A stretch of DNA of 1,340 nt from Escherichia coli (GTDB lineage: Bacteria > Pseudomonadota > Gammaproteobacteria > Enterobacterales > Enterobacteriaceae): assembly GCF_003334335.1 (NCBI RefSeq), contig NZ_QOWQ01000109.1. One strand, given 5' to 3'. Under the pieces are notes generated by a model. It saw only the letters and a list, made by a program, of their open reading frames with translations, made no database searches and was not told the origin of the DNA. The position numbers were made by a program, and so were the translations under genes. Position 1 is the stretch's first letter. Each line of letters opens with the position of its first letter. Shown one piece after another: positions 2 through 1,340 of the stretch.

Positions 2-24
2 CATAAGCGCTAACTTAAGGGTTG
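2..24. repeat. Terminal inverted repeat at the transposase-distal end (IRR relative to the transposase direction)
   Basis: CATAAGCGCTAACTTAAGGGTTG at 2..24 is the exact reverse complement of 1318..1340 (23/23). The match breaks at 25 versus 1317. Confidence 0.95.
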
Positions 25-172
25 AACCATCTGAAGAATGCGACGCCTCGGTGCCTCGTTAAGACGATGCCTCGCGTTCTTCAATTGCGTTTTGTAGGCT
101 GTCAGGGATACTGTCCCACGAATGGCCACCTGTAAGCTCCAGATGACCATTTTTGTTATTCTCCACAACGAG

Positions 173-1285
173 TTAGTTCTTCTTTTCGGATCCGGCACTT
201 CTGGGGGGGAAATCCAGCGATGGCTGGATTATGTCGTCAATTAAAAATGCGGCGAGTAGATTAGCAAATATCCACGCTTTCGCGAGTTCAGGTTCCTTTG
301 CACGCAAAGCATCCAGGTGCAGCAAACTTTTGAGCCGCTTAAAAGCCAGTTCAATTTGCCATCGCAGACGGTAACAATCAGCCACTTGCTCTGCTGAATA
401 TTCATCTTCCGGTAATGATGTTAGCAATAGCACATGGCCCGCTGCTTCCAGCGTTTCCGCCTGAACTACTCGTCCTTTTCGACGATTCTCGCTGAGCAGT
501 CGGGTTTTACTGATTAATGCTTTTTCGGGAGGAAGTGATACGGCAATGAGACGTGCCGGAAAGGGAGCTCCGGCTTTTTTATTACCTGAATTGCCTATCA
601 TTACAGTGGTTTCACCGTTCTTACCGCAATCCAGCCCGCGCAGAAAACCCATCATGTCAAAGCGCATTCCTTCTGCAGTTAACCAGCGCAATCCTCGCCA
701 GTGAACCCGGACGATATAATCAGCTTCTCCAAAAGCAAGTGAGCGGATACATTCGGGACGCGAACCGAATCCCCGGTCAGCAATGCGTATCTCGTCTGCC
801 GTTTGCGCAAATCGGTCCAGCCGTTCAGCGTCTCTGCTGTCGGTTAGCTCAAAATCAGTGAACTGACAGGTATGAGGATCATATCCCATATGTAGTCGCC
901 ATTCAGCGCTGCCGCCCCCGGGCGCACTGATTGCTGTTCCATCGACAAGACGCAATCTCTTTCCGCTTGTACAACCCGTAACTGCGGCGCGTACAGCAAG
1001 TGTTTGTGCGGCAAGTATGCCAAACCAGTCGGCGGCATTCCGCAGCCGCTTCAGGAGAGCCACGTCAGATAATGTTGCAACGTCATGGAGCTGAGCCCAT
1101 GCAGTGACTTCACGTAATGACATCCCCCCGGGGCCGTAAGCCAGCCCCAGACGTAGCAGAGTTGCAGCATCACGAATTTCGCGGCGGCGGGTTAGAGCCC
1201 CGGCATTACGTGCCGAAGTATCCAGTTCTTCGGGCTTACCAATATGGGCCAGAATTGCTGACCAGTTATCGTGAGAGTAATTCAT
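173..1285 (-). CDS. insL: IS4-family DDE transposase (IS186 InsL), 370 aa plus stop
   Basis: The track ORF 173..1291 opens with GTG (1291..1289), CCG, then ATG (1285..1283). Starting at the ATG gives 370 aa beginning MNYSHDNW, which is the InsL length and N-terminus as I recall them. The stop is TAA at 175..173. Catalytic residues were checked codon by codon: D in LVDGT (943..941, GAT), D in ADRGF (778..776, GAC) and E (352..350, GAA) within YRLRWQIELAFKRLK (373..329), a perfect IS4-family Y-2-R-3-E-6-K motif. The start choice between ATG 1285 and GTG 1291 is the main uncertainty. Confidence 0.92.
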   Translation of the reverse strand: MNYSHDNWSAILAHIGKPEELDTSARNAGALTRRREIRDAATLLRLGLAYGPGGMSLREVTAWAQLHDVATLSDVALLKRLRNAADWFGILAAQTLAVRAAVTGCTSGKRLRLVDGTAISAPGGGSAEWRLHMGYDPHTCQFTDFELTDSRDAERLDRFAQTADEIRIADRGFGSRPECIRSLAFGEADYIVRVHWRGLRWLTAEGMRFDMMGFLRGLDCGKNGETTVMIGNSGNKKAGAPFPARLIAVSLPPEKALISKTRLLSENRRKGRVVQAETLEAAGHVLLLTSLPEDEYSAEQVADCYRLRWQIELAFKRLKSLLHLDALRAKEPELAKAWIFANLLAAFLIDDIIQPSLDFPPRSAGSEKKN

Positions 1286-1317: not shown

Positions 1318-1340
1318 CAACCCTTAAGTTAGCGCTTATG
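1318..1340. repeat. Terminal inverted repeat at the transposase-proximal end (IRL relative to the transposase direction)
   Basis: CAACCCTTAAGTTAGCGCTTATG at 1318..1340 is the exact reverse complement of 2..24. It lies 32 nt upstream of the transposase ATG on the minus strand. Confidence 0.95.

Follow-up and report, generated by a model that had tools for sequence, protein, structure and literature searches.

The insertion sequence IS186 of Escherichia coli, together with most of its clade in the IS4 family, appears to encode its transposase in two reading frames, the second of which specifies a conserved C-terminal domain. The stretch of DNA analysed here (hereafter the window, 1340 bases) is one complete IS186/IS421 copy, whose transposase gene lies on the minus strand at 173..1285 and is the element's single long open reading frame (ORF), giving by standard decoding 370 amino acids (aa) from its ATG or 372 aa from a GTG at 1291. 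Existing annotations invariably give it as a protein of 370 aa read in one frame. We found that the +1 frame at the 3′ end of the gene encodes a tail that forms the C-terminus of the transposase in those relatives that carry it in frame, and that a conserved CCC_U, which coding does not explain, stands exactly at the junction of the two frames. We consider it probable that programmed +1 ribosomal frameshifting at two consecutive proline codons would yield a 424-aa protein beside the 370-aa form.

An earlier note on this DNA, made from the sequence alone, had drawn attention to the 3′ end of the transposase gene, and the features that it described are all present. The minus strand reads GAT TTC CCC CCC AGA AGT (214..197), i.e. 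a run of seven C (209..203; G7 on the plus strand at 203-209) followed directly by AGA (202..200), a rare arginine codon. The 0-frame protein ends ..LDFPPRSAGSEKKN (also written ..FPPRSAGSEKKN) on a TAA at 175..173, and the 148 nt that separate this stop from the terminal inverted repeat are nearly all spanned by the +1 frame, which is stop-free from 228 to a TAG at 12..10, inside the repeat. Any change of frame in IS186 must fall within the resulting 0/+1 overlap, which measures 56 nt in identical copies (173..228, minus strand). A +1 shift after CCC CCC gives a 63-aa tail, EVPDPKRRTNSLWRITKMVIWSLQVAIRGTVSLTAYKTQLKNARHRLNEAPRRRILQMVQPLS, and hence a protein of 361+63 = 424 aa. The extension itself occupies 13..201 on the minus strand (63 codons, EVPDPKRR...MVQPLS), carries the conserved motifs S11-L-W13-R14, AIRG and P51-R-R-R54, and predicts several peptides specific to the trans-frame protein, MVIWSLQVAIR, GTVSLTAYK and the junction peptide ..SLDFPPEVPDPK / AWIFANLLAAFLIDDIIQPSLDFPPEVPDPK. 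The probability of ~3% that the note attached to one open 73-codon frame is fair for the IS186 sequence alone and is weak evidence by itself; the +1 frame is, however, open and conserved at the amino-acid level in dozens of diverged elements, which places the finding far above chance.

The closest transposases, 79–88% identical to that of IS186, come from metagenomes. Three of them (L002, L003 and L004) end ..[FI]PP* on TTT/ATT CCC CCC TGA, and the nearest relative (L001) reads TTC CCC CCC GGA at this place. Judged from these sequences, IS186 is a derived version in which TGA has changed to AGA, so that the 0 frame runs nine codons further to its TAA; RSAGSEKKN would then be a lineage-specific read-on, and L002 and L004 have this TAA as well, beyond their 0-frame stop and hence untranslated. 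The contigs of three relatives (L001, L002, L004) extend into the inverted repeat, and in these no stop interrupts the +1 frame between the C run and the same TAG, which is reached over an equal length, the tail ORF likewise finishing ..LS* within TTAAGTTAGCGC. The contig of L003 stops 64 nt past the stop codon, and its +1 frame is open over all of that.

As the earlier note had proposed, we looked for codon-position constraint over 13..201, using a Nei-Gojobori count on a 47-codon block from which the overlap and the inverted repeat were excluded. Differences at the first, second and third codon positions of the +1 frame number 7/2/17 between IS186 and L001, with a ratio of non-synonymous to synonymous changes (dN/dS) of 0.08, 13/9/20 between IS186 and L004 (dN/dS 0.28) and 2/2/8 between L002 and L004 (dN/dS 0.15), the overall range of dN/dS being 0.08–0.39. 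Substitutions thus fall mainly at third positions, a bias found in the +1 frame only, and no stop occurs in this frame while stops are present in the other five. The block accumulates 26–61 nucleotide differences per 141 nt and the protein is nevertheless conserved, with multi-nucleotide arginine swaps among close relatives that are synonymous in the tail (CGT<->AGA/AGG, AGA<->CGC). The extension is a protein-coding domain under purifying selection.

We then considered the clade as a whole by scanning one genome per GTDB species, which gave 79 loci with transposases 36–100% identical to that of IS186, in hosts that include Alphaproteobacteria, Bacillota, Armatimonadota, Acidobacteria, Anaerolineae and Longimicrobium. 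In nearly all of them the 0-frame match ends at the equivalent of P361, on a pyrimidine run, and past that point the +1 frame shows the motifs S-[LI]-W-R, AI-G and [ED]-P-P-R-[KR]-R. A hidden Markov model (HMM) built from 24 tails and run against the six-frame translations of all 84 loci places the ~60-residue tail domain directly after the transposase core in 75 of them, at an offset of +1 in 55, 0 in 19 and +2 in a single locus (L065, 2277-2441). The 46 distinct tails align essentially gap-free, the Trp and one Arg being invariant and S, R and R near-invariant. The in-frame elements, found in Pseudovibrio, an Anaerolineae clade and two Acetobacteraceae/Stellaceae metagenome-assembled genomes (MAGs), show an ordinary linker where the C run would otherwise be. 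The tail was also recovered from 139 proteins in an exhaustive profile search of 1.84 billion representative proteins; most are stand-alone ORF calls of 40–145 aa, and at least nine are full-length proteins of 430–482 aa that have DDE_Tnp_1 and, at their very C-terminus, the tail. An end-to-end alignment with these fused proteins is obtained for the conceptual 424-aa product of IS186, so that the contiguous longer homologues sought by the earlier note exist, both as the 19 in-frame loci and as database transposases. In a neighbour-joining tree of the cores, the +1 state is distributed over all parts of the tree, and in-frame forms are found nested among it on at least four occasions. The former indicates that the two-frame arrangement is old and maintained, and the reversions to a single frame indicate that the fused protein is the functional unit. 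Overall, it is close to certain that the tail is a genuine, selected C-terminal domain of the transposase.

Some further observations concern the tail in databases and individual loci. Word-indexed protein searches with the tail or its profile returned short fragments only. A 46-aa ORF (MVIWSLQVAIRG...) is often gene-called in the tail frame (L002 2636-2776, L004 1288-1428, L087 1357-1497, window 10-150), and public databases list such fragments as 'IS4 family transposase, partial' or as 'hypothetical protein'. Seven long 0-frame homologues (P0056, P0060, P0062, P0082, P0089, P0096 and P0104) were rejected as carriers of the tail domain, their extensions being non-conserved 0-frame read-ons from GC-rich hosts. 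The copy of Ca. Erwinia dacicola (L014, 680-900) is decayed, with a C5 run and a stop within the tail. In one MAG, an in-frame C5 copy (L059, 1100-1330) stands beside C6 siblings, and its C5 may be a homopolymer sequencing or assembly error.

The proposed shift site of IS186 lies at 200..209 on the minus strand, TT[C CCC CCC] with the AGA that follows. To compare it with other elements, junctions were anchored on the alignment to residue 361, as an automated choice of the last in-frame C run mis-picked ~8 loci. A U follows CCC at the P361-aligned position in 46 of the 48 distinct +1-type junctions, IS186, with A, and L001, with G, being the exceptions. The 0-frame codon after this CCC is UGG at 18 junctions, UGA at 14, UGU at 7 and UCU at 3, with UCG, UAA, UAC and UAU at one each. 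In the +1 frame the conserved U falls on a third position, and in the 0 frame it opens these varied codons, so that coding does not explain it. The junction proline codons are invariably CCC, GC-rich hosts included, the runs being C3–C7 or T4–T7 followed by C (e.g. T7C3, T5C5), and the minimal 0/+1 overlap windows, of 29 nt, bracket the shift site. The signal put forward in the earlier note, C7 with AGA, is indeed carried by IS186, but the signal common to the clade is CCC_U, often CCC_UGA. Note that CCC_UGA is an established +1-prone site, with shifting generally at or below 2% and reaching 15% in pheL on UUC_CCC_UGA (PMC3082878). In relatives of the Bacillota/Armatimonadota type (L033, L040, L047, L051, L056, L062, L064, L070, L073, L074 and L082), the 0 frame past the C run holds a conserved W-G-[YF]-[PERT]-[LI] (CCCUGGGGNUWC) before an early stop, a segment that may either belong to the recoding signal or form a short conserved terminus of the 0-frame product.

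On its 5′ side, the C tract adjoins an 8-bp hairpin, AAUCCAGC-CAUC-GCUGGAUU (211..230, minus strand), which is the minimum-free-energy structure and a candidate 5′ stimulator. Covariation was assessed on 22 proteobacterial-type relatives aligned gap-free on the shift site. The hairpin columns are paired in 74% of cells against 59.5% in shuffles, none of 500 of which reaches the observed value. Covariation scores 0.366, whereas shuffles give 0.126 and slid controls never more than 0.155. Compensatory pairs occur at 20-29 (AU 10, CG 7, GC 3) and 22-27 (CG 10, GC 9), and the peptide encoded at the hairpin is not conserved. Upstream refolding hairpins near the E site stimulate the +1 shift at CUU_UGA on E. 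coli 70S ribosomes, and such a hairpin can mimic a Shine-Dalgarno duplex (PMC6321510). No obvious Shine-Dalgarno-like motif was seen by eye at the IS186 site, where no dedicated search was run. From its position and covariation, it is plausible that the hairpin stimulates a +1 shift.

With the in-frame homologues included in the alignment, AlphaFold2 models the fused protein with a predicted template modelling score (pTM) of 0.82, the tail forming two helices (373-389 and 394-408; per-residue confidence, pLDDT, 65–88) on a Tn5-like core. Tn5 transposase was the only strong structural match in a fold search. By analogy with Tn5, the tail is probably needed for synapsis or for full activity.

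These data support the reading proposed in the earlier note and are consistent with the following scheme. Standard decoding would produce a protein of 361–370 aa, ending at or just past the conserved Pro-Pro. Some ribosomes would slip by +1 with peptidyl-tRNA-Pro on the C run, which in the clade reads CCC_CCC_U, most often with a stop, Trp or Cys codon next, and which in IS186 is C_CCC_CCC_AGA, the A site then holding the rare Arg codon. Here the first CCC could re-pair perfectly with CCC and the second with CCA, the latter while the A site awaits the rare AGA decoder. Shifted ribosomes would read 63 codons to the stop in the terminal inverted repeat, completing a 424-aa protein whose added segment is predicted to be a conserved two-helix domain with a basic PPR-R-R end, and the frequency of the slip would set the ratio of full-length to truncated transposase. 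The clade displays several of the features by which programmed +1 frameshifting is recognized, namely a conserved 0/+1 overlap whose downstream frame is under purifying selection, a motif at the junction and homologues fused in frame. That the change of frame is ribosomal, its efficiency, a stimulating action of the hairpin and the role of the domain are what we infer.

Several observations nevertheless weigh against programmed frameshifting as set out here. With CCC_A and AGA, IS186 itself does not match the CCC_U consensus of its clade, and shifting there could be inefficient; roughly half of the relatives present UGG or UGU in the A site, neither of them a classic 'hungry' codon. The 22 loci of the hairpin test were picked for their shared geometry, which biases that test, while an unselected energy test is only moderately enriched (11 of 47 loci rank below the 5th percentile when compared with windows of their respective genes), and relatives of the Bacillota/Armatimonadota type have no such hairpin. 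No tail was detected in 8 loci. In the structural model the last 14 residues are disordered, and the argument for the function of the tail is purely one of analogy, with the C-terminal dimerisation region of Tn5. Lastly, C6 copies in ~5% of E. coli records indicate that a DNA-level route to the fused protein operates too.

The last point is best seen from the variation of the C tract in E. coli, which the earlier note had suggested scoring. The tract is near-fixed: among 2721 E. coli records with the segment, an exact C7 copy is found in 2593, C6 in 146 and C8 in 41. Loss of one C had been predicted to give the 424-aa protein, and the naturally occurring C6 alleles do encode it directly; the product has been deposited from 130 contigs as "IS186, transposase" (AFS75608.1 and others), while PGAP labels C6 and C8 copies 'frameshifted' pseudogenes (example variant copies: NC_018658.1 3817858-3817937, NC_009788.1 23211-23290, NZ_CP032667.1 3864962-3865041). 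C6 recurs in three O104:H4 assemblies and in E24377A pETEC_73, where the alleles appear real, whereas some other C6/C8 variants, such as that of an MG1655 re-assembly, are probably homopolymer assembly errors. A C10 allele (L087 1290-1310, FPPPR..., 371 aa; P0003 cluster, 57 member sequences) has its tract expanded by +3, which keeps both frames. A comparison of copy number with tract allele was not informative. The DNA-level route to the fused protein thus exists, as a minority state.

Could such length changes account for the arrangement as a whole, either through RNA-polymerase slippage on the C/T run or through a heritable C7-to-C6 on-switch? The junction is a homopolymer or pyrimidine run throughout (C3–C7, T7C3, T5C5), the C6, C8 and C10 alleles and the deposited C6 product show that such changes do arise, and the in-frame C5 of L059 beside its C6 siblings points in the same direction. 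The runs are, however, short compared with the poly-A/T (A >7, T >8) of transcriptional realignment, and families that use realignment typically show both directions (PMC3711429), against offsets of +1 in 55 loci and +2 in one here. The long A/T run and the two-way offsets that characterize realignment are thus not what the clade displays. In some members the C stretch is just CCC, preceded by a T run or by TCT, the common denominator being CCC_U and not run length, and in E. coli the exact C7 copy predominates in records where part of the C6 and C8 calls are probably assembly errors. We therefore hold a nucleic-acid length change to be an improbable source of the fused protein, with transcriptional slippage or phase variation a possible contributor.

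Translation of the tail as a separate trans-acting protein of 46–62 aa from a start of its own (ATG at 150..148 or GTG at 198..196) is more improbable still. It would fit the GGAG ~10 nt upstream of the IS186 ATG and the gene calls of the 46-aa ORF in relatives and E. coli (P0135 has 186 member sequences), but the invariant S-x-W-R lies upstream of the sole internal Met, and that Met is itself absent in many relatives (L016, L043, L055, L061, L039, L024 and L025). In L004 neither ATG nor GTG occurs from the shift site to S-L-W-R, and the sole TTG in that interval is the L codon of the motif, after the S. The domain is, moreover, fused in frame in 19 loci and in at least nine full-length database proteins. 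These same fusions bear on the view that the region is non-coding and that the open frame arose by chance or as a by-product of cis-acting DNA conservation, for which one could cite the ~3% chance of a lone 73-codon frame, the frequent conservation of subterminal DNA in insertion sequences for transposase binding and the imperfect inverted repeat at 32-83. High nucleotide divergence, with changes concentrated at +1 third positions, stops in the other frames and none in the +1 frame, together with the fusions, effectively refutes this view, to which we attach a negligible probability.

Returning to programmed frameshifting, a bolder version of it would make the shift a sensor of proline decoding that couples transposition to translational stress. 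The inputs could be EF-P activity, m1G37 modification of tRNA-Pro, the level of RF2 or the supply of argU tRNA. The abundant 361–370-aa form, with the DNA-binding and DDE parts and without the C-terminal helices, would be an end-binding inhibitor, and the rare 424-aa protein the only synapsis-competent form. We offer this version tentatively and regard it as rather doubtful. If it were true, IS186 would be the first cellular genetic element of E. coli in which a CCC_U(GA)-type +1 frameshift is put to use, and its regulatory polarity would be opposite to that of Tn5 Tnp/Inh.

The proposed site shares features with several known recoding systems. As at the shifty stop CCC_UGA (E. coli pheL, the Listeria phage tail genes tsh/cps and some antizyme mRNAs), peptidyl-tRNA-Pro would sit on CCC before a slow A-site codon. 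The likeness to pheL is close in 14 relatives of IS186 that carry (U/C)NN_CCC_CCC_UGA, several of them reading Phe-Pro(-Pro)-stop, and as in the Listeria phage tail proteins the new frame adds a C-terminal extension. However, the shifted product of pheL is unconserved and its shift apparently incidental, whereas the +1 product of the IS186 clade is a conserved domain; unlike shifty stops, moreover, about two-thirds of the clade have a sense codon in the A site (UGG, UGU, AGA/GGA), and the host gene is a transposase. The prfB gene (RF2; CUU_UGA_C with an upstream Shine-Dalgarno) has the same conserved 0/+1 layout, with a slippery P-site codon before UGA and a 5′ duplex by the E site, to which the candidate hairpin of IS186 would correspond. 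It differs in its slippery codon, CUU instead of CCC, and the candidate stimulator of IS186 is an mRNA hairpin; in the IS186 clade the proposed shift comes late in the gene, close to its 3′ end, and would append a small domain, not almost the whole protein, with no evident RF2 autoregulation.

In the yeast element Ty1, a +1 frameshift occurs on CUU_AGG_C, a slippery P-site codon followed by a rare Arg codon. The IS186 arrangement of CCC and rare AGA is comparable, with a slippery peptidyl-tRNA awaiting a scarce Arg-tRNA, except that the host is bacterial, tRNA-Pro would be the tRNA that slips and AGA would derive from an ancestral CCC_UGA. Among insertion sequences, −1 frameshifting or realignment in IS1, IS3, IS5 (IS427/IS1031) and IS630 likewise sets the ratio of truncated to full-length transposase. 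In IS186 the shift would be +1 and not −1, on Pro codons and not on A_AAA_AAG or poly-A, and would add a ~60-aa C-terminal domain to a core already complete in its DNA-binding and DDE parts instead of joining a DNA-binding ORF to a catalytic one. In Tn5 (IS50), the second isoform of the Tnp/Inh pair arises by alternative initiation and is without the N-terminal DNA-binding part, whereas the short form of IS186 is without the C-terminus; the tail helices may correspond, at the level of the fold, to the Tn5 dimerisation helix.

In other respects IS186 is a typical element of the IS4 family with IS231-type ends. Its terminal inverted repeats, of 23 nt, are 100% complementary (2..24 at the transposase 3′ end, containing the +1-frame TAG, and 1318..1340 at the 5′ end), and their sequence, CATAAGCGCTAACTTAAGGGTTG, fits CAT-------AA--TAA, the end pattern of the IS231 subgroup (PMC2266710). 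The transposase matches Pfam DDE_Tnp_1 (PF01609; E 1.6e-26, residues 109-350) and NCBIfam NF033592 transpos_IS4_1 (133 bits against a cut-off of 115, residues 19-352; GTG-start numbering for both), and it contains the Y-(2)-R-(3)-E-(6)-K signature, YRLRWQIELAFKRLK, from residue 305 (Y305, R308, E312, K319). E. coli copies are bordered by 10-bp target duplications, e.g. GGAGTAATCC, within the ~10–12 bp of the family. IS186 is resident in E. coli K-12 and B and often causes laboratory or clinical mutations, such as insertions in the lon promoter. Of 5426 complete E. coli genomes, 2147 carry identical copies (median, 3 per genome), and new insertions have been recovered in laboratory K-12 strains (PMC3045373). 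Segments 99–100% identical to the E. coli element also occur on short contigs labelled as a Prevotella MAG, Marinobacter sp., Staphylococcus cornubiensis and Rheinheimera sp. (L005, L007, L011 and L038), most likely as E. coli contamination of those assemblies.

Within the tail-coding region, beside the terminal repeat, lies an imperfect 19-nt inverted repeat (32-50 / 65-83; 84% complementary, 14-nt loop) with a fold z-score of −1.7, which could be a transposase-binding or mRNA 3′-end element. A promoter and terminator scan found none in 1-260, and an Rfam scan of the window gave only two sub-threshold chance matches, so that no known RNA family accounts for the 3′ segment. A match of the tail alone to E2F_TDP in Pfam/NCBIfam searches (16.9 bits against a cut-off of 25.7) is sub-threshold and was taken as noise.

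The 148-nt 3′ segment of IS186 is instead accounted for by the +1-frame tail, and this bears on how the family is described. The IS4 family has been defined partly by an "absence of frameshift" (PMC2266710), a description that does not fit a conserved +1-frame C-terminal domain in 55 of 75 elements; the domain calls for amending the family description, not for excluding IS186. Large recoding screens have centred on poly-A/T and CTT_TGA heptamers (PMC3711429), and our literature search turned up nothing that connects IS186, IS421 or the IS4 family with frameshifting, although an earlier mention is possible. Control by +1 frameshifting would be an undescribed mode for this transposon family, and, should the active enzyme prove to be the 424-aa trans-frame protein, the definition would have to be revised for a clade found in several phyla. 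IS186 and its relatives would then also supply a natural, phylogenetically deep and utilized +1 frameshift on CCC_U(GA) with a candidate 5′ hairpin stimulator, in which the effects of tRNA-Pro, EF-P and Pro-Pro stalling could be tested in a gene with an easy phenotype, the frequency of transposition. In that case, too, thousands of genomes would be incompletely annotated, and the C6 'frameshifted' pseudogenes would be intact and possibly hyperactive genes.

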